This document shows, one piece after another, positions 2,487-39,910 of a stretch of 60,432 nt of DNA (position 1 is the first letter of the stretch; each line of letters starts with the position of its first letter). The stretch is from an uncultured Bdellovibrionales bacterium (GTDB taxonomy: Bacteria; Patescibacteriota; Minisyncoccia; Moranbacterales; UBA1568): positions 1 through 60,432 of the forward strand of contig CAYUIR010000003.1 of NCBI GenBank assembly GCA_964444815.1, in the 5' to 3' direction. Made by a program: the position numbers and the translations under genes. The notes beneath the pieces were generated by a model, which worked only from the letters and a program-made list of their open reading frames with translations, was not told the DNA's origin and did no database searches.

Positions 2487-2487
2487 A

Positions 2488-2533: not shown

Positions 2534-2545
2534 ATTTTCTATGTG

Positions 2546-2861
2546 TGCCGAGGGGCAGGATTGAACTGCCGACACAAGGATTTTCCACTATTTGTCCTGG
2601 GTTTCCCCAAGGATCGGACTATTTCATCTTCGTTCCCCTAAGGAAGTGCGAAGTCGGGCGCTCTTGCAGGGTTATTGTTGGGACTCACCTGCTAGTCTCT
2701 ACACCTTCTCCAGTACCTATTGCCCACTGGAGCTTGGCTCGAGATTGCCGTATCCACAGAAGCGGACGTAGGTTTCCTCGAGTTCACCCGATACATTCTC
2801 TCGTATTACTACGGGAGCGACCGAAAATCAGTCCTCTGCTCTACCACTGAGCTACCTCGGC
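2546..2861 (-). tRNA. tRNA-Phe(GAA) interrupted by a group I intron (exons 2861-2830 and 2585-2546)
   Basis: 5' exon GCCGAGGTAGCTCAGTGGTAGAGCAGAGGACT plus 3' exon GAAAATCCTTGTGTCGGCAGTTCAATCCTGCCCCTCGGCA join into a canonical cloverleaf. Anticodon stem GAGGA/TCCTT, loop CTGAAAA, T-arm GGCAG-TTCAATC-CTGCC. Confidence 0.85.
2586..2829 (-). ncRNA. group I self-splicing intron (IC3-like, tRNA-anticodon-loop type), 244 nt, no ORF
   Basis: Inserted after U33. P1 hairpin GACU|GA-UUU-UCGGUC places a U.G pair at the 5' splice site. The intron ends in G. The core strings GGAAACCTA, GAGCCAAGC and GAAGGTGTAGAGACTAG match (from memory) the conserved P3-P7-P8 core of the Azoarcus tRNA-Ile and cyanobacterial tRNA-Leu introns. 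Confidence 0.8.
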
Positions 2862-2932
2862 ATCATTCTTTGTTGAAAGTACTGTGTATATCCAGGGGAT
2901 AACTCGATATTTCGCTCTTCTCAGCCATTCTG

Positions 2933-3006
2933 TGCACGCTCAAGGATTCGAACCTTGGACCCCCTCGGTGTAAACGAGGTGCTCTAACCAACTGAGCTAA
3001 GCGTGC
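2933..3006 (-). tRNA. tRNA-Val(TAC)
   Basis: Reverse complement GCACGCTTAGCTCAGTTGGTTAGAGCACCTCGTTTACACCGAGGGGGTCCAAGGTTCGAATCCTTGAGCGTGCA. Acceptor GCACGCT/AGCGTGC, anticodon loop TTTACAC. Confidence 0.88.
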
Positions 3007-3069
3007 CCACTTGTATTCAGTTGGGGATGGTCCCTTACTTTGGGCCCATCGCTCATTTCATTCACTCTG

Positions 3070-3153
3070 TGCCCAAGAGAGGACTCGAACCTCCAATCCC
3101 TTGCGGGAACTAGCACCTCAAGCTAGCGCGTATACCAATTCCGCCACCTGGGC
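3070..3153 (-). tRNA. tRNA-Leu(GAG), class II with long variable arm
   Basis: Reverse complement GCCCAGGTGGCGGAATTGGTATACGCGCTAGCTTGAGGTGCTAGTTCCCGCAAGGGATTGGAGGTTCGAGTCCTCTCTTGGGCA. Anticodon loop TTGAGGT. Confidence 0.88.
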
Positions 3154-24156: not shown

Positions 24157-24447
24157 ATGCGCAATATCAGGGACCTCCTGCCAAAAAGGCAGCATATCAA
24201 GGCGCCAGTACTCCTGGACGAAAAAACTATCTTTTACATCGCCAAAAAAGTACTCGTAGAGGAGTACGGCATTCGGGGTGGGGAAAATATTATTCCTTCA
24301 CTTTATCAAGACAAAAAGCTATTCCTTTCATCAAGGAGCTCACTTTGGGGAAATGAGGTGTGGCTGGAGAAAGAACGCCTGCGTGACAAGATGAATACCT
24401 GGCTTGGGACTGAGGGTATTCTTGAAATCAAAGTCGATCGGGGCTAA
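24157..24447 (+). CDS. DUF721/DciA-like small protein
   Basis: 96 aa downstream of dnaN. The pattern ...LYQDKKLFLSSRSSLWGNEVWLEKERLRDKMN... resembles the DUF721 family often found next to dnaN/recF. ATG at 24157. Confidence 0.45.
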   Translation: MRNIRDLLPKRQHIKAPVLLDEKTIFYIAKKVLVEEYGIRGGENIIPSLYQDKKLFLSSRSSLWGNEVWLEKERLRDKMNTWLGTEGILEIKVDRG

Positions 24448-27087: not shown

Positions 27088-28038
27088 TTAGAGGAGCGTT
27101 CTTTTTTCAAGAGAATCAATGAAGCTTTTACAGAATTTCTTTCTATTTTCTCCGGTGATGGCACCCTTGAAGCCTATCTGATCGTTAATTTCGAAAATAT
27201 AAGGCGTACCATCCTGATCAATTCCAAAATCTATTGAATAAAATGGAGAGGAAAAAGCGGCGTCGATGAGAGGATGGACTTTGCTGACGATAGAGCGGAG
27301 AGCTAGAGGGGCGGATTCATAGGGAAATTCAAAGCACTGCCCACCCTGGCTGATATTGGCTCGGAGTTCACCGGGCTTCGGTGATCGTGCCTGGAGGAGG
27401 ATGGGAGATCCATCCACTATGATGATTCGAAGATCGTGGTGGCCAGAAATAATGCCTGGCACACCGCTACTGGTGTCAACAAATTTTTGAAGAATAAACT
27501 TTTTGTTTGGCTTTAGAAGAAGAGCGGTAAAATTTTTTGCTTCTGTGATTACAACACCTTTTCCACCAAATCCATCTACTGGTTTGAATACAGCCATTTC
27601 TTCTGGATGGAATGAAGCAATAGCAGATTCAAAATCTTTCTCCGAAGTGAGCGTAAATGTTTTTGGCATGAATTCTTTCAGGAGCTCGTAGGTGCGGTCT
27701 TTGTTATTGGCGAGACTTTTGAAAGCCAGTGAGTTGAGTGTTTTTGAATCGATGTCCTGTGTCGGAAAATCCTTTTTGGGGCTACGATCAAAAATGGCAT
27801 CAAAAAAAACTCTTTCTTCTCGCAGCTCAAATTGCTCTCCAGTAAAAAAGAGGACATTCTCAAATTCCATGCCGCCATGATGGATGGTGGGCTTTACTCC
27901 CAAGTACATGTCGAATCCGCGAGATCTGCCTTCTTGAAAAAGAGCCCAGTATATTTCCCGACGATCAGGCATGTGAGCGTAGGGGTCAGCGGCTACTTCT
28001 TTTTTGGTGAAGTAGATGAGGATTTTCTTACGTGGCAT
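27088..28038 (-). CDS. divergent ATP-grasp family ligase
   Basis: FKPVDGFGGKGVVITE (ATP-grasp glycine-rich loop) and DLRIIIVDG...IFEINDQIGF. Overlaps the upstream RimK-like gene by 46 nt. Confidence 0.6.
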   Translation of the reverse strand: MPRKKILIYFTKKEVAADPYAHMPDRREIYWALFQEGRSRGFDMYLGVKPTIHHGGMEFENVLFFTGEQFELREERVFFDAIFDRSPKKDFPTQDIDSKTLNSLAFKSLANNKDRTYELLKEFMPKTFTLTSEKDFESAIASFHPEEMAVFKPVDGFGGKGVVITEAKNFTALLLKPNKKFILQKFVDTSSGVPGIISGHHDLRIIIVDGSPILLQARSPKPGELRANISQGGQCFEFPYESAPLALRSIVSKVHPLIDAAFSSPFYSIDFGIDQDGTPYIFEINDQIGFKGAITGENRKKFCKSFIDSLEKRTLL

Positions 28039-28910
28039 AGATAATTGAAAAGAGAAACGATTTCAGTGGATTGAGGATCTTCCGGTGTAAATCCTGGAGA
28101 ACGATTTACCTCAAAGAGGTACATTTTTTTGTCTTGAGACGAAACGACGATATCTACCCCCGCCACCTCGATGTGTAAGACTTTTGCCGCTTCAAGAGCT
28201 AAGTCTCTCAGGGGAGGTGAAATCTTATTCGGATCGGAGTAGACTTCCCTCCCCCCGAGACTGGCGTTGTTGCGGAAGTCTTCGGTGTTTTGTCGAGTGC
28301 GCTCTTCGAGGGCACCGACAATAGTACCCGTTATGAAGACACGAAAATCAGATTGATTGGGAATAAATTCCTGTAGGATAAGTTTTTCACGGTCGCTATG
28401 GTCAAGGAGCGCGAGGAGTTCATCGCGGTTTCGTACCAGGAAAACCCCCTTGCCCTGGCGAGAGATGATTTTCTTGGCCACGATGGGGAAATGGAAAAAC
28501 TCTTCAGCACGGAGCAACTTTTCTTTGTTGTATGAGGGTGAAAAATAGGTTTTTGGAACAGGGAGTCCACTTTCTGCCAGTACAAACGTCTGGGCTAGTT
28601 TTCCATTGATGGATCCAAAAACATGATGCGTATCCACGAAGGGGATATCTCTTTTTTGAAGATAGCGTGCGATTAAAGTAGCAATGGGTTGATATTTTCC
28701 AGCGCGTTTGATATAGACACTGTCAAAGTCAGTAAGAAGTTTTTTTTCGCAAAAAACACGGATATCATTCTCAGCAATAAAGAATTCCATGGACTGAAAA
28801 TTTCCAAGCTCATACGTAAAAGCATTTTCTCCCATAAAATCAAGAAGCGGATTGATGCTTTTAAGATCAGCAACCATTTTTTTGGTTGGACGGTCCGTGA
28901 GGATGAGCAT
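27993..28910 (-). CDS. RimK-type ATP-grasp ligase
   Basis: FPIVAKKIISRQGKGVFLV, DFRVFITG, AGVDIVVS...LFEVNRSPGF. Confidence 0.75.
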   Translation of the reverse strand: MLILTDRPTKKMVADLKSINPLLDFMGENAFTYELGNFQSMEFFIAENDIRVFCEKKLLTDFDSVYIKRAGKYQPIATLIARYLQKRDIPFVDTHHVFGSINGKLAQTFVLAESGLPVPKTYFSPSYNKEKLLRAEEFFHFPIVAKKIISRQGKGVFLVRNRDELLALLDHSDREKLILQEFIPNQSDFRVFITGTIVGALEERTRQNTEDFRNNASLGGREVYSDPNKISPPLRDLALEAAKVLHIEVAGVDIVVSSQDKKMYLFEVNRSPGFTPEDPQSTEIVSLFNYLCHVRKSSSTSPKKK

Positions 28911-28914
28911 AGCG

Positions 28915-30309
28915 TTATTTATTCACATCAATCAAAAATCTTGTGAGATTCTTTCTGCCGATGATGACCGAATATTTGAGATCAGAGCGATCAATGACGG
29001 AAACTTTAGCGGAGATAACTACACTGTCGAGAGAGAGGTCGAGACGGATCATGGGCCGGTATGATGTCCCGTGAGATGACTTGGTGAGGGAAGTATCTGC
29101 AAGATCTGGTACATTAGCAAACAGTTGTTCGCGTTCTTGCTCTGTATACTCAGTAAGAATGTTTTTCCCTGCTATTCTCTCTCCGAAAATTGTGAGAGTC
29201 TCTTCAAACCCAAGTTGTTTCGCGAGTTCAGTATCAATTGACGTCGAGTCAGCGCCGGTGTCGATTTTGGCTTCGACCTCGATTTCTTTACCGTCTTTGC
29301 CGATGAGTTTCACTTTTTCGATACTGCCGATGACACGCTTACCGGAGAGCTCCTCGATTTCTTCTTCGATTTCGCCCCCGAAGAGATTTTGGCCGACGCG
29401 GATACCACGCTCAACCGTTTTGATCTTGAGTCCCGAGACGCGCTTCAAGCGTCCCTTGAGGCCAGCAAGGTTCGCGAGCTGGATGGAGAGACCAGGCCGA
29501 GCATTGAGCTCGAGGATGACGGGACCACGATCACGGTCGATAGCGATATCAGCACCGAGGAAGCCAAGCCCTGAGAGTGTCTGGGCTTCGACCGACATAC
29601 GGAGGATGTCTTTCCAGTAGGGGATTTTGATACCAGAGAGGACGAGGCGGGTGCCAGGGACATACTCGATGAGCTGCCCCTTGCCGATGATGGCGGTGGT
29701 AGTGGTACCAGTCGCGAGGTCGATACCGACACCGATGGCTCCTTGCTGGAGGTTGGCCTTGCCGTCGGAGGCACGGGTCGGGAGACGGAGCATGGCCATC
29801 ACCGGTACCTGATTGAAGACAATGACGCGGATATCAGGGATGCCCTTGAATGAATAGGGCTTAAAGAGTTTCAGGAGTTTGAGACGCTCTTCGAAAAAGG
29901 CGATGTCCGGAGTGTTGGCGAGAGAAAATGATCCATCGAGAATGTTGCGGATATGAGTCTTCAAATCATCGATGGTGATGACCGAACCATCGGCTTTGAC
30001 CCAGGCATCGGTGCGACCCTTTTTGCGGGCGTAGACTACGACGATACCTTCACCACCGAATCCCCGGTTGGGCTTCAAGGCAAAACTGTCAGGGAGGGTG
30101 TTCCAGTCAAACTGTTCGAGTTCTTCCAGGGTTTTCACCTTGGCGATGAGGGCCGAGACGCCGAGGTTGTTCTTCTTCAGGATGCGCTTACAGAGGAGTT
30201 TGCTATCAGCAATCTCCATACTGCGTTTGCGGTTGTTCGGGCGGATGTACTCCAAGTTTCGGGCGTTCATGCCGAGGAGGAGTCCGCTTTTCTTCAGGAA
30301 GTCGAACAT
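28915..30309 (-). CDS. alpha-L-glutamate-ligase-like ATP-grasp fused to a C-terminal retropepsin-like (RimB-type) aspartic protease domain
   Basis: N-terminal MNARNLEYIRPNN...FALKPNRGFGGEGIVVV...DIRVIVF...ILELNARPGL. The C-terminal 130 aa carry KIDTGADSTSID (D-T-G-A signature). Confidence 0.7.
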   Translation of the reverse strand: MFDFLKKSGLLLGMNARNLEYIRPNNRKRSMEIADSKLLCKRILKKNNLGVSALIAKVKTLEELEQFDWNTLPDSFALKPNRGFGGEGIVVVYARKKGRTDAWVKADGSVITIDDLKTHIRNILDGSFSLANTPDIAFFEERLKLLKLFKPYSFKGIPDIRVIVFNQVPVMAMLRLPTRASDGKANLQQGAIGVGIDLATGTTTTAIIGKGQLIEYVPGTRLVLSGIKIPYWKDILRMSVEAQTLSGLGFLGADIAIDRDRGPVILELNARPGLSIQLANLAGLKGRLKRVSGLKIKTVERGIRVGQNLFGGEIEEEIEELSGKRVIGSIEKVKLIGKDGKEIEVEAKIDTGADSTSIDTELAKQLGFEETLTIFGERIAGKNILTEYTEQEREQLFANVPDLADTSLTKSSHGTSYRPMIRLDLSLDSVVISAKVSVIDRSDLKYSVIIGRKNLTRFLIDVNK

Positions 30310-30348
30310 ACGAGGGACGATTAAACAGTCAGAGATCGGGAGCTAAGG

Positions 30349-31008
30349 CTATTGAAGACGTTTGATAATGGTGCGGAAGCGGAGGAGCTCCGTGATGCGG
30401 AGGCCGGTCCACTTGCCGAGCGAGAAGTTGATGACAAAGGTCACAAGGATGATCCAAGGATGAGAGAGGATGAGGGTGACGAGAGCATCCCAACTGACGA
30501 GGAAGTATCCCGTGACCGAGATGACGAGGGTTTCAACGGCGAGAATGAGCGCGACTCGACTGCCTTTTTCGATTTGAGTCGCGATAAATTTCTCAGCGAG
30601 GGTGATCATGATAAGGAGAGGGAAAATCGAAACAGCAGCCAGTCCCGTGCGACGGTACATGCCACCAAGGACGAGTACGCCGAGAATGGCAAGCGAGACG
30701 ATAGAGACGGTGATAGCCACCCGCGGCAAGTAGAGCAGGCGGAATTTCTTCATGAGGAGCCGTGACAGAGTGCCCACGACGATGACACTGACAAAAATAG
30801 CGATGCCGTACTTGATACCATTTGGGTCAAAAGCAAGGAGGGCAAAGGTGATGATCGAAGGAGTGTAGATACCAAACGCTTTGATCCCGACAACTTGTCG
30901 GAAAAAGGCGACCAGGGTCACGACGATAGGTAGCATCAACAGCAGCGCAACCGTCTGAAGCGGCACGCCCTGTTCGACGATAAAGTTGATGAAAGGATGA
31001 TAGGACAT
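30349..31008 (-). CDS. 7-TM membrane protein of the type associated with ATP-grasp/inactive-transglutaminase systems
   Basis: 219 aa, 6-7 TM helices, N-terminal FFRQVVGIKAFGIYTPSII motif. Immediately upstream of the ATP-grasp genes. Confidence 0.55.
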   Translation of the reverse strand: MSYHPFINFIVEQGVPLQTVALLLMLPIVVTLVAFFRQVVGIKAFGIYTPSIITFALLAFDPNGIKYGIAIFVSVIVVGTLSRLLMKKFRLLYLPRVAITVSIVSLAILGVLVLGGMYRRTGLAAVSIFPLLIMITLAEKFIATQIEKGSRVALILAVETLVISVTGYFLVSWDALVTLILSHPWIILVTFVINFSLGKWTGLRITELLRFRTIIKRLQ

Positions 31009-31088: not shown

Positions 31089-31580
31089 TCAACCCTGTTG
31101 AATAGATTCTACTTTGCGGCGGGACTGGTGACAGAGGGCGAGCGCCAGGGCGTCGGCTGTGTCATCAGGTTTTGGTATCTCAGAAAGTTTCAAAAGGGCC
31201 TTTACCATCAATTGTACTTGAGTTTTGTCAGCTCTCCCATAATTTGTCAAGGCCTGCTTCACCTGAAGAGGCGTGTAACCAAAGATAGTAACACAAAAAT
31301 TCTCCAAAGTCAAGAGAATCACCCCACGGGCCTGAGCGACCGAAATGATAGTTTTTTGGTTCTTGAAAAAGAATAATTCCTCTACCGCTGCCTCCTCGGG
31401 CTGGTACTGTTTGATGATTGCTTCGAGGTCACGAGCAATTTCAGCCAAACGCTTCTCATCCGAGAGGTCTTTGCTCGTGCTGATATGACCAAAAGCGACC
31501 GCTGTGGCCTTTCCGCCCTGTATTTCGATAACTCCCCAGCCCACCGTCGCCGTGCCGGGATCAATGCCTAAAATGCGCAT
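31089..31580 (-). CDS. ruvC: crossover junction endodeoxyribonuclease RuvC
   Basis: MRILGIDPGTATVGWGVIE... with catalytic D/E/D/D positions (AVEELFF, ADALALA). Confidence 0.92.
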   Translation of the reverse strand: MRILGIDPGTATVGWGVIEIQGGKATAVAFGHISTSKDLSDEKRLAEIARDLEAIIKQYQPEEAAVEELFFFKNQKTIISVAQARGVILLTLENFCVTIFGYTPLQVKQALTNYGRADKTQVQLMVKALLKLSEIPKPDDTADALALALCHQSRRKVESIQQG

Positions 31581-31592
31581 ACAAAGGGAATA

Positions 31593-32405
31593 TTATTCTT
31601 GATCAAATTTGAGCGCTTGGGGGCGGTCGTATTTTCCTTCAAAGGCTTTCCAGAGGAGTTCAAAAGCCTCGCCGATCGCCACAGCAAACTTGGGCGATTC
31701 AATAATGAGAGTTTGGGCGCTCTCAATGAGACAGATGCGCACGAACTGTTTATCACAGGACTCGATGGACACCTTGGCGCTGTAGAGTTCAGGCGGCATG
31801 AATTTGGCTTCAATGCTGCCCTTATCGGGCTCAAGGTATTTGGCGTAGGGGGTCAGATTGGAATTATCGACCGTAATACCACGGACTTTTGGACCATATT
31901 TTTCTTTGTATTCATTCCATTCCATGAAAACTTTGGTGACTTCCGGTGAGGCGTCCTCAGGTGAAGCAAAAAAACCGACGATTTCTTTCCCATGGAGTTC
32001 ACGCTTTTTGTAGTCATAAGCCTGACGCATGCCATCGGCCCCTTCGTAGTACATAATGCTGGGCTTTTCGGCAGTACCTTTTTGAAAAGAGCGCAGTTCT
32101 GGGAGGATAGCCCGGGCGGCACGGAGTTTTTCGCCCTGTTCTTCGATAAAGGCATCAGGAGTCCGGGCGATATAGCGTTTCTTGTCTTCGCCAGGCACAT
32201 GGACGATGAGCCCCTTTTCCACTAGCTCCTCCGCGATGACATAGGCTGTTGGACGCTTGATTTCGGCTTTATTGGCAATTTGGTAGGGGGTAGAGGGGCC
32301 AAGTTGAAGCAAAGCCAGATAGATTTTGGCCTCTTTTTCAGAAAGTCCTAGGTTTTTCAGTGGTTCCAATAAGTGTTCCATAACCCTATCATACTCTTTT
32401 TTCAT
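31593..32405 (-). CDS. TrmB-family winged-helix transcriptional regulator (module 1)
   Basis: The sequence LGLSEKEAKIYLALLQLGPSTPYQIANKAEIKRPTAYVIAEELVEKGLI is a TrmB-type wHTH. Start ATG 32405 (or 32381). Confidence 0.75.
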   Translation of the reverse strand: MKKEYDRVMEHLLEPLKNLGLSEKEAKIYLALLQLGPSTPYQIANKAEIKRPTAYVIAEELVEKGLIVHVPGEDKKRYIARTPDAFIEEQGEKLRAARAILPELRSFQKGTAEKPSIMYYEGADGMRQAYDYKKRELHGKEIVGFFASPEDASPEVTKVFMEWNEYKEKYGPKVRGITVDNSNLTPYAKYLEPDKGSIEAKFMPPELYSAKVSIESCDKQFVRICLIESAQTLIIESPKFAVAIGEAFELLWKAFEGKYDRPQALKFDQE

Positions 32406-32519
32406 AAAATAGTCAATACTTTTGACAAATAAAACCGATACAGAGTGATAAATACCTTTATTAAAGCAAAAAGTAGTATAAAAATAGGACATGTACTTGC
32501 ATAAATATAGACGGTATTA

Positions 32520-32548
32520 TTGACAATATGTTGTTTTCGGAGTATAAT
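32520..32548 (+). promoter_or_regulatory. consensus sigma70 promoter P1, divergent from TrmB-1
   Basis: TTGACA (32520-32525), 17-nt spacer, TATAAT (32543-32548). Confidence 0.7.
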
Positions 32549-32551
32549 ACA

Positions 32552-32604
32552 CAGTCAAGTTAAGAGGCAGCAATGCAAACTAGCTTGATCCAGTTCTTTC
32601 AAAC
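32552..32604 (+). promoter_or_regulatory. conserved leader motif, promoter-proximal copy 1
   Basis: CAGTCAAGTT-[20 nt]-AGCTTGATC-CAGTTCTTTCAAA. The stem TCAAGTT/AGCTTGA is homologous to 37205-37256. Confidence 0.55.
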
Positions 32605-32656
32605 CAATCGGCAAATAGCCACCCGCTCCTCGGGGTTCTGGGGAAAGGAGGCCATT

Positions 32657-33112
32657 ATGTTGTTTCGATTCGTCGCTCACGGTGCATATCACGGCTGGTA
32701 TAAGCAATGCGTCACGATCGAGAGTGCCATTGCGGGTCTTAAAGTGGAACGGCAGCGACTGCAGAGTGTCATAAATGCCCTTGAAAGTAGAATTGAGTTC
32801 ATGCGAATTCAGTTCGTCTGCGGCAGCTTCTCTGAAGATGATCAACGCTCGCTTGATTGGAAGACGGGTGAATACATAAAGAAGCTCGAGTTCGAGGTCA
32901 GTCTGAAACGCAATGCACTCGAATCACGCCACTGGAAAATTTTGGAGGGTGCTATTCCGCCAGAAAAGGAATTCAAGAGGGATTACGGTCGTTCCGAATG
33001 TTGCTTCCCACGGCACTACGACCAAGACGGTGTACTCGTTTATGACGGCATGGCGTGGCCATGGCGCATGGAGGAGATTAAGCGTCTGGAAGAGGAGTAC
33101 GGCCAGGCGTAA
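32657..33112 (+). CDS. hypothetical protein (151 aa)
   Basis: AAGGAGG 5 nt upstream of ATG 32657 (MLFRFVAHGAYHG...). The longer 32573 start would run through the conserved leader motif. A coiled-coil-like middle region. I recognise no family. Confidence 0.55.
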   Translation: MLFRFVAHGAYHGWYKQCVTIESAIAGLKVERQRLQSVINALESRIEFMRIQFVCGSFSEDDQRSLDWKTGEYIKKLEFEVSLKRNALESRHWKILEGAIPPEKEFKRDYGRSECCFPRHYDQDGVLVYDGMAWPWRMEEIKRLEEEYGQA

Positions 33113-33118
33113 ACGTGT

Positions 33119-33210
33119 GGCGAGTGAAGAAAACTTCTTCCTCGCCATCTCAATCAAGTTCATCACACGGTGTGGTGGGCTCGTAGAGATTCTGTACTTT
33201 CACACAACTC
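33119..33210 (+). promoter_or_regulatory. conserved intergenic leader motif, copy A
   Basis: Hairpin 1 is GGCGAG(T)GAAGAA-AAC-TTCTTCCTCGCC, followed by TCTCAATCAAGTT. Hairpin 2 is CATCACA-CGG-TGTGGTG, followed by GGCTCGTAGAGA and CTGTACTTTCACACAAC. An AAGGAG RBS lies downstream. Confidence 0.6.
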
Positions 33211-33222
33211 AAGGAGTGAATC

Positions 33223-33741
33223 ATGGAAATGACCTGCATCTTGATCGTCGAAGACAAGGTGGAAGAGCAAGATAGAGCGCTCGCCGCCGTGAAGAATGCT
33301 TTCGGCATTACCGATGAACCTTTCAGCGAGAGCCCTGTCGGGATTGAAGGGTTGACTGGCTGGCGCTTCGTTCTCTGCGGTAAAAAGGACGGACCGACTG
33401 GCGTGATGGTCTTCCTTGCGAGTTGTCTCGGGGCTTTCCGTGGCCGGATGGACTTTCTGAAATCGGGTATTTTCCCAAAGAAACTCATTCTGACCGACCT
33501 GATGTTCCCCATGAACATGAAGGGCCAGGAGAAGATGCACGGGATTGAAGTGCTCGTTGATGCCATCGAATCGGGTATCAATGTGGTGGTGTGTAGCGAT
33601 ACTGACCATCATGATGTACCGTTCATGCCGTCGCTCATCCGAGTCCTCGAGAAAAACCACCCGAGAGGAAAGATCCCGGTGGTTCTTGACCGCAAGGACT
33701 GGGACAAAGCGGTCGCTCTGGGTCTCGAGCTCCTCGCGTAA
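33223..33741 (+). CDS. orphan CheY-like receiver (REC) domain protein, atypical (large insertion, no output domain)
   Basis: CILIVEDKVEE (beta1 acidic pair), KLILTDLMFP (candidate phospho-acceptor Asp), VVVCSD (beta4 Ser/Thr position) and a later Lys. About 40 extra residues lie between beta1 and beta3. Confidence 0.45.
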   Translation: MEMTCILIVEDKVEEQDRALAAVKNAFGITDEPFSESPVGIEGLTGWRFVLCGKKDGPTGVMVFLASCLGAFRGRMDFLKSGIFPKKLILTDLMFPMNMKGQEKMHGIEVLVDAIESGINVVVCSDTDHHDVPFMPSLIRVLEKNHPRGKIPVVLDRKDWDKAVALGLELLA

Positions 33742-33751
33742 CACGTCGAGA

Positions 33752-33845
33752 GTTCCGGAGAAGTGTTGAATCAAACGCTTCTCCTCTCAATCAAGTTCAT
33801 CACACAGTGTGGTGAGCTCGTAGAGAAGCAGTTCTTTCAATCAAC
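33752..33845 (+). promoter_or_regulatory. conserved intergenic leader motif, copy B
   Basis: GTTCCGGAGAAGTG-TTGAATCAAA-CGCTTCTCC, then TCTCAATCAAGTT. Hairpin CATCACA-CAG-TGTGGTG, then AGCTCGTAGAGA and CAGTTCTTTCAATCAAC. The first ~50 nt are near-identical to copy C. Confidence 0.6.
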
Positions 33846-33885
33846 CGGGTCGCAACCAGAAATAGCGAGGAAGGAGGTGAAAGAT

Positions 33886-33954
33886 ATGTTGGAAATTGCT
33901 TCCAACACCGGGTCTGCTGGCCGTGATGGCCAACCGGTGCGTGTCACCCGTTAG
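33886..33954 (+). CDS. mini-ORF P1 (22 aa), candidate precursor peptide: MLEIASNTGSAGRDGQPVRVTR
   Basis: GGAAGGAGGTG RBS 6 nt upstream of the ATG. Paralogous to P2, with mostly synonymous codon differences in the shared TG[ST]AGR...QPV[RK] core. Confidence 0.55.
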   Translation: MLEIASNTGSAGRDGQPVRVTR

Positions 33955-34124
33955 GGTGGCCAACCCTGTAACCAAAGGGTTACGGCGCTTGGGGAAGCGT
34001 GGCAACAGCAGCCGACGCCGTCGGTATCCTCCCTGGCAAAGTAGTAGGCACAGAGTGTGCTCTTGTCTTATGGCAATTCCCATAAGCCCGCGGCTCTCTC
34101 GGGATACAGAGCAAGGAGACTGCC

Positions 34125-34184
34125 ATGACAGCAGCCACCGGAACGGCAGGGCGGGGCGCAAGCTCTCAGCCCGTCAAGCGCTAA
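34125..34184 (+). CDS. mini-ORF P2 (19 aa), candidate precursor peptide: MTAATGTAGRGASSQPVKR
   Basis: AAGGAG RBS 6 nt upstream of the ATG. Shares the T-G-S/T-A-G-R and Q-P-V-R/K blocks with P1. Seven of nine conserved residues use different synonymous codons. Confidence 0.55.
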   Translation: MTAATGTAGRGASSQPVKR

Positions 34185-34255
34185 GAAGCGTTTGGTCTCG
34201 CAACGTCGAGCGGGGTTCCCGAAATACCCTGTCAATAAAATCGGAATGTGGTTTT

Positions 34256-34335
34256 GGGGAAAAGCAACGCTTTTCTCCTCTCTATTGAGAATCGTATCAG
34301 CTCACTCGCAGATACGGTGCTCATCGAGATTGAAT
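34256..34335 (+). promoter_or_regulatory. conserved intergenic leader motif, copy D (divergent)
   Basis: Hairpin 1 is GGGGAAAAGC-AAC-GCTTTTCTCC, followed by TCTCTATTGAGA. Hairpin 2 is ATCGTATC-[12 nt]-GATACGGT, followed by GCTCATCGAGA. Precedes the radical SAM gene. Confidence 0.5.
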
Positions 34336-34376
34336 AAAGAAGTTTTTTAACAATGTGTTAGACTGGAGAAAACATC

Positions 34377-35783
34377 ATGACTACATCTATGAATGAACAA
34401 CCAATAACATTCTTCAATTTTAAACCAAAGAAAATTGAGGAGCAAAAACAGACGGAACTGGTCGCTCCAACAGAAGTTGCCCTTGAGCCTGAGGTGCAGG
34501 AGCGTCTCGCTGAAATGAAGGGTTCTGCAAATCGCTATGCTTGGATAATTGCCGATGCTGTGGCTAGTGATATCGAACCAACTCCAGAATTATTGGCTGA
34601 ACTACTCATTAATCAAAAGCACGAATTACCTCATTTGGTGTCGGGCGTTATGGAGCGAGCTTGCAATTTGCAGTGTGCACACTGTTTGTATCAAGAAGAA
34701 AAAAGTAGTGCGGTAGTTTCGGAAGAAGCTCATTTGGGCGAACGAATTATCAATATTGTTTCTCAAATGCCCATCCAGTCTCGGGAACTAGGGGCGGAGT
34801 ATAGTCCAAAATTTTTGTCCATTGGTCGTATTTTGAGACCGTGGCATCTTGATGTATTTACTGAACTGCGTCGTCTTCGTCCGGATGTCAGACTTGGAGT
34901 AATTGATAATGGTAGTTACACCAAGATTTTGTCAAAGTGGCCAGAAGACTTCAAGTTTGATTGGATGGATATATCAGTGGATGGTGTTGAAGAAAGTCAC
35001 AATGAACAACGCCAGTCGCCCAAGGCATTCGCGCAAGCAGTAGAGGGATTGAAGCGAGCCCGTGAAGTCACCAAGTCTCCTGAAGAAGATGGCCAAGTCA
35101 GCTCGCTTTTGACGCTGACTAAAATCAATGCACATGACATTGAAGCAGTGGCTGACGCACTTCTCGTGGTTCCTGATGGTGAAGTCTTGCCACTGGCGGA
35201 TAAGTTCAATATCACGACCGTCGGCCCGACCAATGAGATTAACCGGAAGCTCGAGACGGATAACGAAGATTTCCAGGCGGCCTGGGGACAGATTAAGAAT
35301 GTGTGCCAAAAGTACAATCATGATGGAAAGAAGCGGGTTGTCTTTGGTATTTACCGAATACAAGATATTGAAAAACTAGCAGTCGCGGTTGGTGAAAAGA
35401 GATTTCTTGAGGCCTTTACAGCAACGGAAGACTCGCTACCAATCGCAGGAGAAAGAAATTTTCTTGATTTGGAATTTGATGGTGTACCTATTCAATATCA
35501 GCCGCTGTCAATTTGGACTCCAGAGGAATTTCCGATAGATGCCGATGGATCGTACTTGGCTGCATATGCAGTGAAACATACGATAGACGAGTTGCAATCC
35601 GGCAGAGCGAAGGATGGCACAGATACGTCGGCGTATACCTTCGAGAGACTGACCGAAAAAACCGATTTTCGAGAGAGCTTCGAGCGTGCTGTGGATGCTT
35701 ACTGGATGAGATTTGGGAAACAACGTCTACAGGACGAAATAGCGGCATTCAAACGGATTCGTGAGAAAGCGAAGAGTCAGTAG
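34377..35783 (+). CDS. radical SAM enzyme (single CX3CX2C cluster, no obvious SPASM Cys-rich tail), ~90-aa N-terminal extension
   Basis: ERACNLQCAHCLY (Cys96/100/103), GRILRPW (GGEP-like) and ISVDGVEESHNEQRQ, typical of the MoaA/PqqE-like radical SAM core. GGAG RBS 8 nt upstream. Confidence 0.8.
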   Translation: MTTSMNEQPITFFNFKPKKIEEQKQTELVAPTEVALEPEVQERLAEMKGSANRYAWIIADAVASDIEPTPELLAELLINQKHELPHLVSGVMERACNLQCAHCLYQEEKSSAVVSEEAHLGERIINIVSQMPIQSRELGAEYSPKFLSIGRILRPWHLDVFTELRRLRPDVRLGVIDNGSYTKILSKWPEDFKFDWMDISVDGVEESHNEQRQSPKAFAQAVEGLKRAREVTKSPEEDGQVSSLLTLTKINAHDIEAVADALLVVPDGEVLPLADKFNITTVGPTNEINRKLETDNEDFQAAWGQIKNVCQKYNHDGKKRVVFGIYRIQDIEKLAVAVGEKRFLEAFTATEDSLPIAGERNFLDLEFDGVPIQYQPLSIWTPEEFPIDADGSYLAAYAVKHTIDELQSGRAKDGTDTSAYTFERLTEKTDFRESFERAVDAYWMRFGKQRLQDEIAAFKRIREKAKSQ

Positions 35784-35810
35784 TCGAAGAGAAATTGAAT
35801 AAAAACCAAA

Positions 35811-35850
35811 GAGGGGCGCCTCTCATGGCACCCCTTCTTTTCTTTTGGCG
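35811..35850 (+). terminator. intrinsic terminator-like hairpin after the radical SAM gene
   Basis: AGGGGCGCC-TCTCAT-GGCACCCCT (one mismatch), followed by TCTTTTCTTTT. Confidence 0.5.
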
Positions 35851-35879
35851 GAACATATTTACTACACAAGGAGAGCGAA

Positions 35880-36242
35880 ATGAATGTTGACCAAGTGAAA
35901 CAGTTGATCGATCGAGTGGGCCCGCATATTGATGTGCGCTATGACTACACTTATGGACCGCAGTTTCTCGAAAGCCGGTCTGACATCTGCATCGTTAAAC
36001 GACTGGTAGAGAACGGATCGAGCTACGGGTATGACACGCTCTATTTGGTGTGGGAGAGTGCCGGAAAACTTCAATACCAGCTGATCGACGACACTCAGTC
36101 GAGCAAGGACTACCTCCACATCGAGAGCCTTCAAGAAGAAGGGGACGTTATCGTTGTTGTATATCGAAACGGAGGGAGTTTCAGCGGTAGACCTGGAAGT
36201 ATGACGCGTCGTTTCAAAAAACAGCAGCTGGGACTTGTATGA
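35880..36242 (+). CDS. hypothetical protein (120 aa)
   Basis: AAGGAG RBS 6 nt upstream. Sequence MNVDQVKQLIDRVGPHIDVRYDYTYGPQF... I recognise no family. Confidence 0.5.
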   Translation: MNVDQVKQLIDRVGPHIDVRYDYTYGPQFLESRSDICIVKRLVENGSSYGYDTLYLVWESAGKLQYQLIDDTQSSKDYLHIESLQEEGDVIVVVYRNGGSFSGRPGSMTRRFKKQQLGLV

Positions 36243-36251
36243 ACAAGTAGC

Positions 36252-36289
36252 AAAAAGCGTCGTGGGAAATCCTACGACGCTTCTTCTTT
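36252..36289. terminator. bidirectional intrinsic terminator, repeat copy 1 (identical to 39148-39185)
   Basis: AAAAAGCGTCGTGGGAAATCCTACGACGCTTCTTCTTT. 12-bp stem AAGCGTCGTGGG/CCTACGACGCTT, loop AAAT, A-tract 5' and T-tract 3'. Confidence 0.75.
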
Positions 36290-36292
36290 TTT

Positions 36293-37099
36293 TTACTTGG
36301 CCATTTCCCAGAGCATGAGAAAGAATTGCTCGTAGTTTTTGGCGACAACTGGGGACTTTACCGCGTAGATGAGTGGGGGATTGAGAAAGCTATAGAAACT
36401 AACCGAGTCTTTTCGGACGACCATATGCGCCACTCCTTGCGGTAATTGCTTCATAAAGCGGTATTCCTGGTTTGAGTAAATTCCAATAAATTGCTTGTAA
36501 TAAGGCTCTTCATTGATACTTCCGATGTACTTTACCCCGATGTTTTTCTTTTTCTTTTCGTTCAAGTAGCGCTTGAGAAGTGGCCCCATAGTCTTGGTAA
36601 AGCCATCCGAAGCTCCACCGATGATGTATTCAAAGTCTCCCGCGTCCATTTTTTCGACGTTCTCCATTTCAAACCTCCGGATCGCTTCTTCTCCCTGAAT
36701 TACTTCAAAATCCTGTTCGTAGCCGAGGCGGGAGAATGTTGAGAGTTCATGGACGAGCTGTTCTGCTTCGACCAGCTTGCGTTTGGCAATCTTCTCGATT
36801 TCACCCTGAGAAACGGCTTTGTAGCGAGATTGTTTGCCACGGGGAATTTCGATGATCAGGCCGCGTTCACGGAGCATTGGCAGGGCAGTATAGACGTACT
36901 GGCGGGGAATACTAGCCTTCTTGGCGATGTCTGAACCACCAAGCTCTCGTCCGGCCTCAAGGAGAGCTATATAGACTGCGGTTTCGCTTTCAGATAGACC
37001 AAAATCCTGGAGCATGGTAGCGGCTCGCTCGTGTTCCGTAAGAACGGATTTTTCCGGCATTTCTCCCGGTACGCAATTTTGTGATTCTAAATCCGTCAT
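36293..37099 (-). CDS. TrmB-family winged-helix transcriptional regulator (module 2)
   Basis: FGLSESETAVYIALLEAGRELGGSDIAKKASIPRQYVYTALPMLRERGLI. Same architecture and length class as TrmB-1. Confidence 0.75.
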   Translation of the reverse strand: MTDLESQNCVPGEMPEKSVLTEHERAATMLQDFGLSESETAVYIALLEAGRELGGSDIAKKASIPRQYVYTALPMLRERGLIIEIPRGKQSRYKAVSQGEIEKIAKRKLVEAEQLVHELSTFSRLGYEQDFEVIQGEEAIRRFEMENVEKMDAGDFEYIIGGASDGFTKTMGPLLKRYLNEKKKKNIGVKYIGSINEEPYYKQFIGIYSNQEYRFMKQLPQGVAHMVVRKDSVSFYSFLNPPLIYAVKSPVVAKNYEQFFLMLWEMAK

Positions 37100-37172
37100 A
37101 AATATATATACAGTATATCATATTATGGCTTTTTGTAAAGTAAATTAGTATATAAATAATGACATATTATAA

Positions 37173-37201
37173 TTGACAGTATTAGTATTTTCTGCTATAC
37201 T
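37173..37201 (+). promoter_or_regulatory. near-consensus sigma70 promoter P2, divergent from TrmB-2
   Basis: TTGACA (37173-37178), 17-nt spacer, TATACT (37196-37201). Confidence 0.7.
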
Positions 37202-37204
37202 ATG

Positions 37205-37256
37205 GAGTCAAGCTGAGAGAACGTAAGTGAGTCGAAGCTTGAAATCAGTTCTTTGA
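37205..37256 (+). promoter_or_regulatory. conserved leader motif, promoter-proximal copy 2
   Basis: GAGTCAAGCT-[21 nt]-AGCTTGAAAT-CAGTTCTTTGAAA. The stem TCAAGCT/AGCTTGA covaries with copy 1 (C-G versus U.G). Confidence 0.55.
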
Positions 37257-37376
37257 AAAGTCTCCCACTTAGGTCTTAGAGTAAAGAGGGTGATGCATAG
37301 TCCTTTCCATCCTAAGACCTAGGCGCACCTCTTGATCGACTCATGTGAGTAACGAAAGATGATGTGAAGGAATGCC

Positions 37377-37739
37377 ATGAGTACCTGCTGTAGCTTTAAA
37401 CTTTGTCTCATGACTGCGGAAATAGGTTTTGCAGTTTCGAACGGAGGAATGGATGGAGAGTTTAAGACATATGTAGTTCGGTATCGTCCGGCATCTCAGC
37501 ATCCTATTTGCGTTCCACACGCGTGGAATTACCGCACGGAGGAGTTGCATCAAACTTCTTCTCACCCATTGGCGCAAGGCGCCATCCTTCCTATGTCAAA
37601 TGACGGAAAGGGAGAAAAATCTTCTTGGGCAGAGGCATTTCCCATGTTCGTTGACCCAAAATGGAACTCATTTGAACATGAGGCAATGGTGGACATCCTG
37701 AATAAGGTTATCAAAGAAGGGAGGATGACCTTGGGCTGA
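37377..37739 (+). CDS. hypothetical protein (120 aa)
   Basis: ORF with a GAAGGA RBS-like element upstream. Cys-rich N-terminus (MSTCCSFKLC). I recognise no family. Start uncertain. Confidence 0.45.
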   Translation: MSTCCSFKLCLMTAEIGFAVSNGGMDGEFKTYVVRYRPASQHPICVPHAWNYRTEELHQTSSHPLAQGAILPMSNDGKGEKSSWAEAFPMFVDPKWNSFEHEAMVDILNKVIKEGRMTLG

Positions 37740-37758
37740 ATTAAGTCGTAGCTGGTAG

Positions 37759-37850
37759 GTTCCGGAGAAGTGTTGAACCTGACGCTTCTCCTCTCCATCA
37801 AGTTTTCAAACAAGCGGTTTGAGGACTCGTAGAGAAAAGTACATTGAAAA
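37759..37850 (+). promoter_or_regulatory. conserved intergenic leader motif, copy C
   Basis: GGTTCCGGAGAAGTG-TTGAACCTGA-CGCTTCTCC, then TCTCCATCAAGTT. Hairpin TCAAAC-AAGCG-GTTTGA: a different sequence from A/B at the same position with the same fold. Followed by GGACTCGTAGAGA. Confidence 0.6.
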
Positions 37851-37882
37851 TCTGAAATCTCGTATACGAAGGAGTTGGCACC

Positions 37883-37936
37883 ATGCATAAGCGCATAGCG
37901 CCTGCCCTCTCGTATACGAGCGCACTCTCTGACTGA
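37883..37936 (+). CDS. possible mini-ORF (17 aa): MHKRIAPALSYTSALSD
   Basis: GAAGGAG 8 nt upstream. Not similar to P1/P2. Overlaps one of two TCGTATACGA palindromes, so it may be regulatory DNA instead. Confidence 0.25.
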   Translation: MHKRIAPALSYTSALSD

Positions 37937-37974
37937 AGCCTATCGGCGACGGAGAGCAGTGCGAGGAGAATGAC

Positions 37975-38259
37975 ATGATGGGCCAACGAGTTTTTGTTCT
38001 GATTTCGTTTAAAAACCTGCCTTATTTTGAGAGGCGAGAGGAAATCCACGGAGTCACTACAGACGAATCATTCGCTCAGAAATGGGTGCTGGAACCCGTG
38101 CAAAAAGGTGCAATGCTCTGGGAAGTCAAAAAAAGTAACGGGCTGTGGTGCAAATTTGCCTGCAATGAGAACTGGGAGGCTGGTAATAAGTTCTATGAAA
38201 GAAGCTATGCGAGTCTTATGCTAGACTTCTCATTGCCTAAGTTATCCCGAAACGGATAA
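37975..38259 (+). CDS. hypothetical protein (94 aa)
   Basis: AGGAGA RBS 5 nt upstream of the ATG. I recognise no family. Confidence 0.5.
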   Translation: MMGQRVFVLISFKNLPYFERREEIHGVTTDESFAQKWVLEPVQKGAMLWEVKKSNGLWCKFACNENWEAGNKFYERSYASLMLDFSLPKLSRNG

Positions 38260-38306
38260 AAAACATATTCGCGTTACTTATCCGCTTATAGATAAGTCAA
38301 TCAATT

Positions 38307-38343
38307 GGCAGTTGCTTAGTATAGCAGCTGCCGGTTTTCTTTT
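38307..38343 (+). terminator. intrinsic terminator
   Basis: GGCAGTTGC-TTAGTATA-GCAGCTGCC, followed by GGTTTTCTTTT. Confidence 0.7.
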
Positions 38344-38380
38344 GGTATAATTGATAAGAAGATTTATTATCTATAGCCCT

Positions 38381-39109
38381 ATGTCATACGAACTGCAAGT
38401 AAATCGAGAGACGGGCGCATACGATAAATCAACCGCGGAAAAGTATACGGCCGGACAAGAACAATTTTTCGGGGTGGAAAAAGTAGAAGATGGCGCGACG
38501 CTCGCTATGGAAGCTGAGATTGTAAAAATTCGTGAGGTGCAACCGATTGAAACGTTATACGATCTTGGTGCCGGGTCGAACCGTGACTACTTACGGAGGT
38601 GGTTGAAGGTATCAGGTGCAAGTGCGGTTATTGGTGTCGAGCCATCGGCTCACATGCGGGCACTTTCGGAGAAAACAAAAAATGAGAGCGAACCGATTAC
38701 CGTCGTTGAAGGGGATTGGTATAATACAGGATTGCCAGATGCTTCAGCTGATATGGTAGTTTCACGGTTTTCGTTCCATCATCTGCGCGATATTTATGAG
38801 GGATATACGGAGCTCGTCCGTATTTTAAAGCCCGGTGGTTATGCGGTAATTTCGCTCCCGCACCCGAAATACTGTGCCGCAGAGCTCCGGAAGAAAGCAG
38901 AGGAGCCAGCCGAGGGGAAGTCAATGTCAGTGCAGGTGTTCGATACCACGCTCCATTATTACTATCACGATGCCGAAGCTTACCTCGGAGCAAATGCCGC
39001 TTCGGCCGGGCTGGAAGTAGTTGAAACTAAGTCGTTCAATTGGGGAACGAAGGACGCCGCAGCCGCATCGATCCCAAACACGCTTCTCTTCGTCTTGAAG
39101 AAGAAATAA
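38381..39109 (+). CDS. class I SAM-dependent methyltransferase
   Basis: Motif I LYDLGAGSNRD, an acidic loop, and post-I/II motifs VVSRFSFHHL and LKPGGYAVIS. ATG at 38381. TATAAT at about 38346. Confidence 0.8.
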   Translation: MSYELQVNRETGAYDKSTAEKYTAGQEQFFGVEKVEDGATLAMEAEIVKIREVQPIETLYDLGAGSNRDYLRRWLKVSGASAVIGVEPSAHMRALSEKTKNESEPITVVEGDWYNTGLPDASADMVVSRFSFHHLRDIYEGYTELVRILKPGGYAVISLPHPKYCAAELRKKAEEPAEGKSMSVQVFDTTLHYYYHDAEAYLGANAASAGLEVVETKSFNWGTKDAAAASIPNTLLFVLKKK

Positions 39110-39147
39110 AAAAAGAGTGAGCAGGAGAGTGATAATTGTTGTATATA

Positions 39148-39185
39148 AAAAAGCGTCGTGGGAAATCCTACGACGCTTCTTCTTT
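39148..39185. terminator. bidirectional intrinsic terminator, repeat copy 2 (identical to 36252-36289)
   Basis: The same 38-nt string AAAAAGCGTCGTGGGAAATCCTACGACGCTTCTTCTTT. Confidence 0.75.
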
Positions 39186-39190
39186 ATAAG

Positions 39191-39910
39191 CTAGGCGCGG
39201 TTATCCCACACTTTTTGGACATCGGGATGATCGTCGAGAGTCTCAAGGAGCTTTTCGAGAGCAGGGAGGTCGCTCTCGGTGGGAGTGGCGGTTTGCGAGG
39301 GGACATAGCCGAGCTCCGCACTTTCACAAATCATATTCTTATCACGGAAATATTCTTCGACTGACTGTAGCTTATCGATGGCTGTGACCACCACAAACAC
39401 TTCATCGGTCACGAAGAAATCATCAGCCCCAGATTCGAGCGTTTCGTTCTCGAGTGTCTCGGCCGAATATTTCTCGAGCGAAAAAGCGATGAGACCGACG
39501 CGCCGAAACATAAACGACACAGCACCAGTCGGGACGAACTTGCCGTTCCCTTTGGTGAGAATGCTCTTCACTTCGCTCACCGTGCGGTTCTTGTTGTCGG
39601 TCGCGGTTTCGATGATGAGAGCGACTTGGCCCGGGCCGTAAGCTTCGTAGGTGAGTTCTTCGATCTGAGCGCCGTCTTTCAGTTCGCCGGTACCGCGCTT
39701 GATCGCCCGGTCGATGTTGTCCTTGGGCATGTTGACGGTCTTGGCAGCGTCGATGGCCATCTTGAGTGAATAGTTGCTATCAGGATTGCCACCACCAGCG
39801 GCGGCAGCGATGATGATATTGCGACCATACTTGGTGAAAACAGCGGCACGCTTGGCGTCGTTCACGCCTTTGGCGCGATGGGTTGTGGCCCAGTGAGAAT
39901 GTCCCGACAT
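39191..39910 (-). CDS. yebC: YebC/PmpR family DNA-binding transcriptional regulator
   Basis: MSGHSHWATTHRAKGVNDAKRAAVFTK... is the canonical YebC N-terminus. Confidence 0.92.
   Translation of the reverse strand: MSGHSHWATTHRAKGVNDAKRAAVFTKYGRNIIIAAAAGGGNPDSNYSLKMAIDAAKTVNMPKDNIDRAIKRGTGELKDGAQIEELTYEAYGPGQVALIIETATDNKNRTVSEVKSILTKGNGKFVPTGAVSFMFRRVGLIAFSLEKYSAETLENETLESGADDFFVTDEVFVVVTAIDKLQSVEEYFRDKNMICESAELGYVPSQTATPTESDLPALEKLLETLDDHPDVQKVWDNRA

Follow-up and report, generated by a model that had tools for sequence, protein, structure and literature searches.

Nut-like antitermination sites are known from rRNA operons, in which boxB, boxA and boxC stand in this order in the leader and are repeated in the 16S-23S spacer. 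The boxA of rrn operons reads UGCUCUUUA and that of phage lambda CGCUCUUA; the search consensus is GYTCTTTAANA, and the boxA-null allele mutates C4 and T6 together (C4T/T6C). Outside rRNA, boxA has been described in the suhB leader, where it and the Shine-Dalgarno sequence (SD) are 6 nt apart and translation is repressed by Nus factors, and at a ParE-like toxin gene and CRISPR arrays. Here we describe a repeated element of hairpins and a short box in 60,432 nt of contig CAYUIR010000003.1 (assembly GCA_964444815.1; this whole stretch is hereafter called the window), which derives from an uncultured bacterium. The element stands behind the promoters and between the genes of a variable island at 31593-39190, bounded by two minus-strand genes, ruvC (31089-31580) and one of yebC type (39191-39910). 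Tentatively, and at slightly less than an even chance, we read it as a nut-like antitermination or Nus-factor site that would be loaded at the promoter and reloaded at gene junctions.

A repeated structured RNA at promoters and gene junctions

The island comprises two modules of like build, each with a TrmB-like regulator gene on the minus strand, a divergent near-consensus promoter, a plus-strand gene array and a U-tract terminator. Promoter P1 (TTGACA-17-TATAAT, 32520..32548) matched the consensus at 12 of 12 positions and promoter P2 (TTGACA-17-TATACT, TG-extended, 37173..37201) at 11 of 12; both promoters and all copies of the element in the window lie on the plus strand. Six copies of a leader element had been claimed here in the first-pass annotation, and their positions were borne out by repeat search, folds and covariance model (CM) matches. 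Three of the six (A, B and C) are strong copies, the fourth (D) is diverged with the same fold, and the two behind P1 and P2 are truncated forms. Copies A and B were 87% identical over 61 nt, and B and C 91% over 46 nt. The string CTCGTAGAGA occurred exactly three times in the 60 kb, all in copies A, B and C; with one mismatch allowed there were 14 matches versus 4.1 expected. CM matches within the window were confined to the island. A match at 24305-24370, inside a coding open reading frame (ORF) after dnaN, was rejected as chance.

Each of the copies A to D folds as a hairpin 1 abutting a long hairpin 2 (z -4.3 to -6.1, with no shuffle equally stable). TCTCAATCAAGTT and RGCTCGTAGAGA had been taken for conserved strings separate from hairpin 2, but they are the two strands of its lower stem: they pair together (TCTC/GAGA and CAAG/CTCG, with a bulged U) and lengthen it to ~19 bp. 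This leaves CAGTTCTTTCAA as the sole unpaired string of the element. Hairpin-1 stems measured 7-12 bp, not 9-12 bp as first described. The hairpin-2 sequences first read (CATCACA/TGTGGTG, TTCAAAC/GTTTGA and CGTATC/GATACG) were correct, and so was the U.G to C-G change between the flanking stems of P1 and P2.

In copy A, hairpin 1 (33119..33146) abuts the core, and hairpin 2 (33147..33190; CM match 33146-33208, 71.9 bits) combines the lower pairings UCUC/GAGA and CAAG/CUCG with the top CAUCACA/UGUGGUG. The box of this copy, GTACTTT (33194..33200), has one mismatch to GYTCTTT and is followed by an SD at 33211-33216 and an ATG at 33223. Copy B has a hairpin 1 of the sequence type of copy C (33757..33784), a hairpin 2 of the type of copy A (33785..33826; CM match 33783-33845, 73.5 bits) and the box GTTCTTTCAA (33831..33840). 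Copy C consists of hairpin 1 (37764..37791), hairpin 2 with the top UUCAAAC/GUUUGA (37792..37835; CM match 37790-37853, 55.8 bits) and a degenerate box, GTACATT, with two mismatches (37839..37845); orthologous copies in the related loci L246 and L124 were 85-89% identical. Copy D (hairpin 1, 34256..34278; hairpin 2, 34279..34329; CM match 34277-34354, 19.7 bits, E 0.015; fold z -5.3) is diverged in sequence, but every helix is kept (UCUC/GAGA, UGAG/CUCA, CGUAUC/GAUACG), the middle stem changing from C-G to U-A and from A.C to G-C. Its degenerate box GTTTTTTAACAA (34342..34353), in which the conserved C is replaced by T, was read from the sequence and left out of the box count.

Behind P1, a hairpin (GUCAAGUU...AGCUUGA, 32554..32589) starts at about the transcription start and is followed by the box GTTCTTTCAA (32593..32602). 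The corresponding hairpin behind P2 (UCAAGCU...AGCUUGA, 37208..37242), identified by folding and by comparison of related leaders, is followed by GTTCTTTGAA (37248..37257). These two boxes and that of copy B are the only exact matches to GYTCTTTNAA in the window. Neither hairpin 1 nor the lower stem is present in the truncated promoter-proximal forms. The unit in common is therefore the hairpin top plus the box, and those other two parts are specific to junctions.

Relatives of the island were gathered via the TrmB-like protein, yielding 56 metagenome loci, and a covariance model (R1) was built of the hairpin-2 core and the box. R1 detected about 38 copies with E below 0.02, in 17 of the 56 metagenome loci (including two near-duplicate pairs) and in L003, L017, L246 and the window. 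The loci with copies were mostly contigs of an uncultured, probably Patescibacteria-type lineage that carry the TrmB-like regulator. A genome scan with the loose pattern TCAAGTTN{10,30}CTCGTAGAGA returned 119 stretches, nearly all of them chance matches, with only L003 and L017 being real. Viral contigs chosen by a primary-sequence pattern (70 matches) gave no R1 match in 594 kb; thus no phage link was seen, and the result also serves as a specificity control.

In the alignment of 34 copies, 92.2% of cells were paired, compared with 74.2% in shuffles and 34-52% when partners were slid by 1-3 columns. As this alignment was fitted to the model, its pairing is somewhat inflated; a hand-checked MAFFT seed alignment of 11 copies gave the same picture (90.9% versus 78.7% in shuffles and ~40% with partners slid). 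Among the 34 copies, double-sided changes occurred in 14 of the 19 pairs (121 cells), and G-U or U-G pairs outnumbered A-C or C-A by 89 to 19, an excess which indicates that the helix is selected on the mRNA-sense strand. The conserved arms of hairpin 2 read CTCTNATCAAG and CTYGTAGAG. In 34 of 38 copies, versus 13% of 2000 random windows, a hairpin 1 with 6 bp or more ended no farther than 4 nt from the core, and 27 distinct hairpin-1 stem sequences were found. The element is very probably a selected RNA structure. The proposal of a cis-acting structured RNA thus held up on further copies in other genomes, compensatory changes, the sense-strand G-U excess and co-orientation with genes; additional copies and covariation, the two things whose absence was to count against it, were both found.

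No catalogued RNA family accounted for the element. At the gathering threshold, Rfam 15 returned only four tRNAs and a group I intron for the whole window, and at E<=5 it gave one unrelated weak match (36197-36286) over 32400-38400, in agreement with the first-pass remark that it could not be matched to a familiar riboswitch class. Literature searches for a described intergenic RNA motif of Patescibacteria found nothing relevant. The suggestion of an attenuator with alternative pairings was not upheld: the element has two independent hairpins with variable loops, showing neither the mutually exclusive terminator and antiterminator pairings of an attenuator nor the conserved multi-helix ligand pocket of a riboswitch, and no general competing structure was seen. 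An ANTAR-type dual hairpin was rejected together with three readings treated below (internal promoter, TrmB operator and MITE), because spacing and loop length vary and in view of the covariation, the strand bias and the distribution. The element is therefore a real and widespread structured leader and junction RNA without an Rfam family. It would be a new, well-supported family of structured RNAs, specific to a large and poorly understood group of uncultured bacteria and located next to genes of unknown function. With its covariance model, metagenomes can be searched for arrays of this kind and for the orphan genes in them.

Wherever the flanking predicted ORFs were examined, which covered every significant copy except that at 3691-3759 of L171, the copies were co-oriented with them. 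Copies begin about 10-60 nt after the upstream stop codon, and in most of them AGGAG and then a start codon follow 7-17 nt after the model match; in some copies the leader is longer. The conserved arms (ATCAAG to TAGAG) lie 24 to more than 36 nt apart, a variation that excludes a two-box promoter and a rigid dimer operator. An internal promoter was rejected, as the sigma-70 spacing of 16-18 nt was not observed and a search for a promoter-like site in A-D found none. A dispersed repeat of the REP or MITE type was likewise rejected, given the confinement to the island within 60 kb, the nearly constant co-orientation and the start codon 7-17 nt downstream in most copies.

The box and its likeness to boxA

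The box lies 2-5 nt after hairpin 2; its sequence is G-(T>C)-T-C-(T>A)-T-T, and an A-rich stretch comes next. There were no more than two mismatches in 29 of 34 copies and an exact GYTCTTT in 17; G, C and the sixth-position T were present in 29 of 29 boxes and the last T in 27 of 29. In isolated folds of A-D it was unpaired. Its core equals the first seven bases of GYTCTTTAANA, and C4 and T6, the two positions changed in the boxA-null allele, are invariant here. In the P2 leader the box is AGTTCTTTGAAAAG. The form in rRNA spacers of Gram-positive bacteria and mollicutes is GUUCUUUGAAAAC, with which a mycoplasma rRNA-spacer PCR primer, GTTCTTTGAAAACTGAAT, agrees. No rRNA gene, and hence no rRNA boxA of the lineage itself, was present in the window or in any of the lineage's fetched loci.

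The geometry of the leaders also agreed. Eight closely related leaders (P1, P2 and six others) have the order -10, 4-6 nt, a 7-9 bp hairpin, 2-4 nt and box, with covarying arms (TCAAGTT/AGCTTGA, TCAAGCT/AGCTTGA, TCAAGTT/AATTTGA, TCAGGAT/ATCCTGA and TCAGGTT/AGCCTGA). In P1 and P2 this order is TATAAT or TATACT, 4-6 nt, the 7-9 bp hairpin, 2-4 nt and (A)GUUCUUU(C/G)AA. The E. coli rrnG leader, read from the genome record, has TATTAT, 11 nt, the GCCGCU..AGCGGC hairpin (boxB), 2 nt and UGCUCUUUAACAA (the box after boxB being TGCTCTTTAACAA in DNA letters). As in rrnG, the box stands in the leader soon after the promoter, single-stranded and adjoining a stem-loop. Judged by these boxes and this layout, the element matches a boxB-boxA antitermination signal; what would be new is its reiteration between cistrons and its link to exchangeable arrays of orphan genes.

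If the box is boxA, it would be the site of the NusB/NusE (S10) pair, with the stem-loop in place of boxB, in the order of rRNA leaders. Polymerase starting from P1 or P2 would transcribe the unit first and change into a Nus-modified, termination-resistant form. At each junction the unit is repeated with hairpin 2 lengthened by the lower stem (CUCU.A/UAGAG) and a strong, though U-tract-poor, hairpin 1 abutting it, and this hairpin 1 would serve as a weak terminator or pause, as a protector of 3' ends and as a folding insulator. The repeated unit would reload the complex, allowing transcription to reach the U-tract terminator at the array end; we counted the terminators at the array ends in favour of this, as context. 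Read-through would cover the U-tract-poor hairpin 1 and factor-dependent termination in foreign-looking arrays. In a test for intrinsic terminators, hairpin 1 of A, B and C was not flagged, and that of D alone was terminator-like. Most copies have only 5-12 nt between box and SD, and for this reason translation may be under the control of Nus binding too, as it is at E. coli suhB.

Several observations weigh against a nut-like site. Conservation is loose in the 3' half of boxA (AANA), which appears as CAA, GAAAA or TCAAC; GTTCATT stands in seven copies; 5 of 34 copies lack the box yet keep both hairpins, and in the window the boxes of C and D are degenerate. Strong conservation at the base of hairpin 2 (AUCAAG/CUUGUAGAG) contrasts with boxB of rrn, which is dispensable and poorly conserved, and points to some further recognition. 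UUCUUU can pair with AAGGAG, and longer folds show partial pairing of box and SD (mean unpaired probability 0.44 and 0.37). As only seven bases agree with a single known motif, the likeness might also be coincidental.

The candidate site resembles the nut-like sites of rrn operons in having a hairpin followed by a single-stranded box with the core GYUCUUU, a copy right after the promoter and a further copy downstream in the same transcript, and a spacing almost identical to that of E. coli rrnG. Unlike those sites, it stands before protein-coding genes next to ribosome binding sites and at each junction (up to 4-5 per array), has no boxC and possesses a sequence-conserved hairpin base and an extra abutting hairpin 1; Nus binding is putative here. 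With the boxA of suhB (E. coli, Salmonella), of the Citrobacter ParE-like toxin gene and of CRISPR arrays it shares a position outside rRNA in long or foreign-like units. However, those cases, found in Proteobacteria, have one boxA in each unit, lack conserved partner hairpins and show no repetition between cistrons. Lambda nutL and nutR also combine boxA and a stem-loop in promoter-proximal nascent RNA and allow read-through of downstream terminators, but in lambda boxA precedes boxB and the N protein, which binds a GNRA-like loop, is needed, whereas the loops here are variable and no N-like protein was evident. If the boxA reading is true, Nus antitermination would drive accessory gene arrays and be reloaded at each junction, extending it beyond rRNA, phages and a few single genes.

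The same hairpins bear on mRNA processing and stability, which we consider a rather unlikely explanation. Here hairpin 2, with its ~19 bp and bulge, would be cut by an endonuclease, whether specific for double strands or not, hairpin 1 would shield the upstream 3' end and the genes would become separate messages, while the promoter-proximal 5' stem-loop would protect against 5'-end-dependent decay and the box would be a U-rich landing site for the ribosome or S1. Conserved intercistronic RNase III hairpins separate the early messages of phage T7, and S1 is reported to bind boxA-like RNA. The lower stem is found in junction copies only and not in the promoter-proximal forms, hairpin 1 has no U-tract, unlike the terminators of the island, and primary transcripts start within a few nucleotides of a stem-loop, all as processing would have it. 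However, if both strands of the lower stem were cut, the downstream message would lose hairpin 2, leaving the homology of hairpin 2 with the 5' hairpin of the primary transcript unexplained, and neither the invariant G and C of the box nor its conservation far from the SD is accounted for. REP/BIME and ERIC elements and the T7 RNase III sites are likewise transcribed, repeated stem-loops that separate the genes of an operon, and they can affect where its messages end and how stable these are; REP and ERIC, however, are scattered genome-wide in both orientations, whereas this element is confined to the island within 60 kb, nearly always co-oriented, and accompanied by a box.

The distance of the box from the SD also bears on a translational operator, in which either the box would work as a weak anti-Shine-Dalgarno sequence or a dedicated protein would bind hairpin 2 and box, with uniform control of each gene. 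The spacing of 5-12 nt in most junction copies is consistent with this, the UUCUUU/AAGGAG pairing (with two G-U pairs) appeared in several minimum-energy folds, and a base of hairpin 2 conserved in sequence is expected of a protein site. However, perfect boxes persist where the SD is 30-110 nt away (P1, P2, B, L123, L124), which argues for a role independent of the SD and against a pure anti-SD function. The invariant G is not explained by SD pairing, and no candidate RNA-binding protein was common to the loci, only the TrmBL2-like DNA binder being shared. We regard a translational operator as improbable.

A second structured leader of ~100-115 nt follows the box in some copies and ends at the SD. 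It was located at 37268-37369 in the window, at ~3757-3860 in L003, ~4500-4400 (minus strand) in L017 and ~7940-7835 (minus strand) in L120, and was also present in L121, L123, L124, L134, L138 and L246. It has two helical domains, AGGUCUUAG...CUAAGACCUAGGC and CACCUCUU...AAGAUGGUG, and among 37 predicted pairs compared over ten loci 12 showed compensatory changes. There was no Rfam match, and the downstream genes differ. This leader could be a separate regulatory RNA.

The TrmB-like regulator and the exchange of array genes

Regulator 1 (31593..32492, minus strand; Pfam PF01978, E 2e-16), whose orthologue adjoins ruvC in L017, is divergent from array 1, and regulator 2 (36293..37099, minus strand; PF01978, 203 homologues) from array 2. 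The structure model of the TrmB-like protein (pLDDT 84) matched TrmBL2, a chromatin protein of archaea, over the full length (E 8e-14) and showed a PLD-like fold in the C-terminal domain. A role as recombinase or nuclease was rejected, as the model matches TrmBL2 and no canonical HxK(x)4D motif was seen in the aligned sequences. Most simply, the modelled protein would be a DNA-binding controller of the divergent promoter. Distant TrmB loci (L120-L171) share the string CAG(A/T/C)AAGTT near the transcription start, in the first 10-15 nt after the -10, and in these loci a degenerate box is joined to the SD (AGTTCACTGAAAGG and similar). The shared string may be an operator of the regulator or the 5' arm of a leader-wide hairpin.

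The inverted repeats could themselves be DNA operators, bound both at the promoter and throughout the array by the TrmB/TrmBL2-like protein whose gene is divergent. In favour of this, the start site lies within the promoter-proximal repeat, many distant TrmB loci have a related string, CAGnAAGTT, after the -10, and the protein models as TrmBL2, a chromatin-type DNA binder of archaea. Against this, the arms are spaced by ~24 to more than 36 nt with loops of up to 36 nt, pairing is maintained by covariation in the spacer although binding to DNA would not call for it, and G-U pairs are A-C mismatches on the other strand, which disfavours a cruciform. Such an operator is highly improbable, and TrmB-operator and MITE readings were both rejected on the grounds given above for the ANTAR type.

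The interval between ruvC and yebC was a hotspot, relatives carrying one or two modules of TrmB-like gene plus array with different cargo. L017 has the same ruvC-TrmB...yebC frame with wholly different genes; within the arrays its junction copies alone could be aligned with the window, and these were 84-87% identical versus 71-76% for the flanking genes. L124 and L246 carry module 2 only. The window and L246, whose regulators are 89% identical, have in common the leader as far as 37371 and also junction C (37760-37867, 85%), while the genes between and after them are replaced. Copy B joins the hairpin 1 of C to the hairpin 2 of A, and the unit of box plus long second leader found behind P2 sits after an internal junction in L120. 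In these comparisons the conserved junctions behave as sockets between which genes appear to be exchanged, and homologous recombination between repeated functional signals suffices as an explanation. The element offers a handle for studying how, in these reduced genomes, variable genes are expressed and exchanged.

An alternative, part of which had been raised as a recombination scar linking cassettes, is that the junction hairpins are themselves exchange sites or portable homology, comparable to attC and attI, with the promoter-proximal half-site in the place of attI. The swapping of genes between conserved junctions stood up, as did the mosaic of copy B, the junctions of L017 kept amid different genes, the junction of L246 kept with both neighbours replaced, and the shift of box and second leader from a promoter-proximal position in the window to an internal one in L120; the cargo is of orphan genes, as in chromosomal integrons. 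The defining features of integron attC sites, however, were not found. Pfam searches of all island proteins and precomputed Pfam assignments of L246 genes revealed no recombinase, there are no RYYYAAC/GTTRRRY boxes, and the G-U excess speaks for the sense strand, while in attC it is the bottom strand that folds. Junction C stays while both neighbours change, whereas attC travels with the upstream gene. A fixed SD register and a non-palindromic box are not needed for recombination, and ordinary homologous recombination explains the mosaics. We regard this alternative as very unlikely.

The likeness to integrons lies in imperfect hairpins that are conserved in their outer parts, vary at the top and have a bulge at the base, and in sites placed between promoterless orphan genes of one orientation behind a single promoter, with a partial site by the promoter and variable content. 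The island differs in having no integrase, no R''/R' consensus, a sense-strand fold, junctions unlinked to any one gene and an asymmetric box in SD register. A wider proposal, that Patescibacteria possess a cassette system with no recombinase or with an unknown one, in which the junction would be both a nut-like expression signal and a socket for the exchange of orphan genes, from array to array and from genome to genome, under TrmBL2-like control, is given little credence here. If true, it would be a functional analogue of integrons made of different parts, under a chromatin-type TrmBL2-like protein. In L003, on a Lloydbacteria contig, an IS200/IS605-type transposase-like ORF (779-1213, minus strand; judged by eye) lies 2.5 kb from the motif and was considered coincidental.

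Array genes and neighbouring features

The array genes lacked credible Pfam matches (E<=0.01), apart from a weak radical SAM match and a methyltransferase; four of the island proteins had no match at all and three had only sub-threshold ones. Ten of ten junction-flanked cargo proteins from related loci were also without a Pfam match, and only a REC-like protein, a methyltransferase, a Liv-type binding protein and one small family recurred between loci. With so few recurring families, a common cargo theme was rejected.

Two very short Gly/Ala/Thr-rich ORFs of 22 and 19 aa (33887-33954 and 34126-34185) lie in a G+C-rich, hairpin-rich stretch directly upstream of the gene at 34377-35783, which encodes the 468-aa protein with the weak radical SAM match. 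Together, these genes could form a peptide-modification set. After copy C, a 28-nt inverted repeat (37859-37920, 75% complementary) spans the start of a 17-aa ORF. L246 carries a 203-aa gene after the same junction in place of this ORF, and thus the ORF may be a remnant.

U-tract terminators were identified at 36255-36282, 38303-38336 and 39151-39178. The first and third (plus strand) close arrays 1 and 2 with a 28-nt stem-loop of identical sequence. The region around the array 1 terminator (36251-36291) was 100% identical over 41-42 nt in L246 and L124, exceeding the conservation of the neighbouring genes; the corresponding stretch around the array 2 copy is 39148-39181.

Elsewhere, the window carries dnaA and dnaN, recognised from their translations, and a cluster of four tRNAs (1552-3153, minus strand) that contains the group I intron match (2595-2859). 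Beside the intron match lies a 236-aa ORF (1776-2486), which may be a homing endonuclease and recurs on several short metagenome contigs. The stretch adjoining ruvC (27088-31008) holds a run of ATP-grasp/RimK-type genes and a 7TM transglutaminase-type gene, according to the Pfam labels of the syntenic genes in L246.

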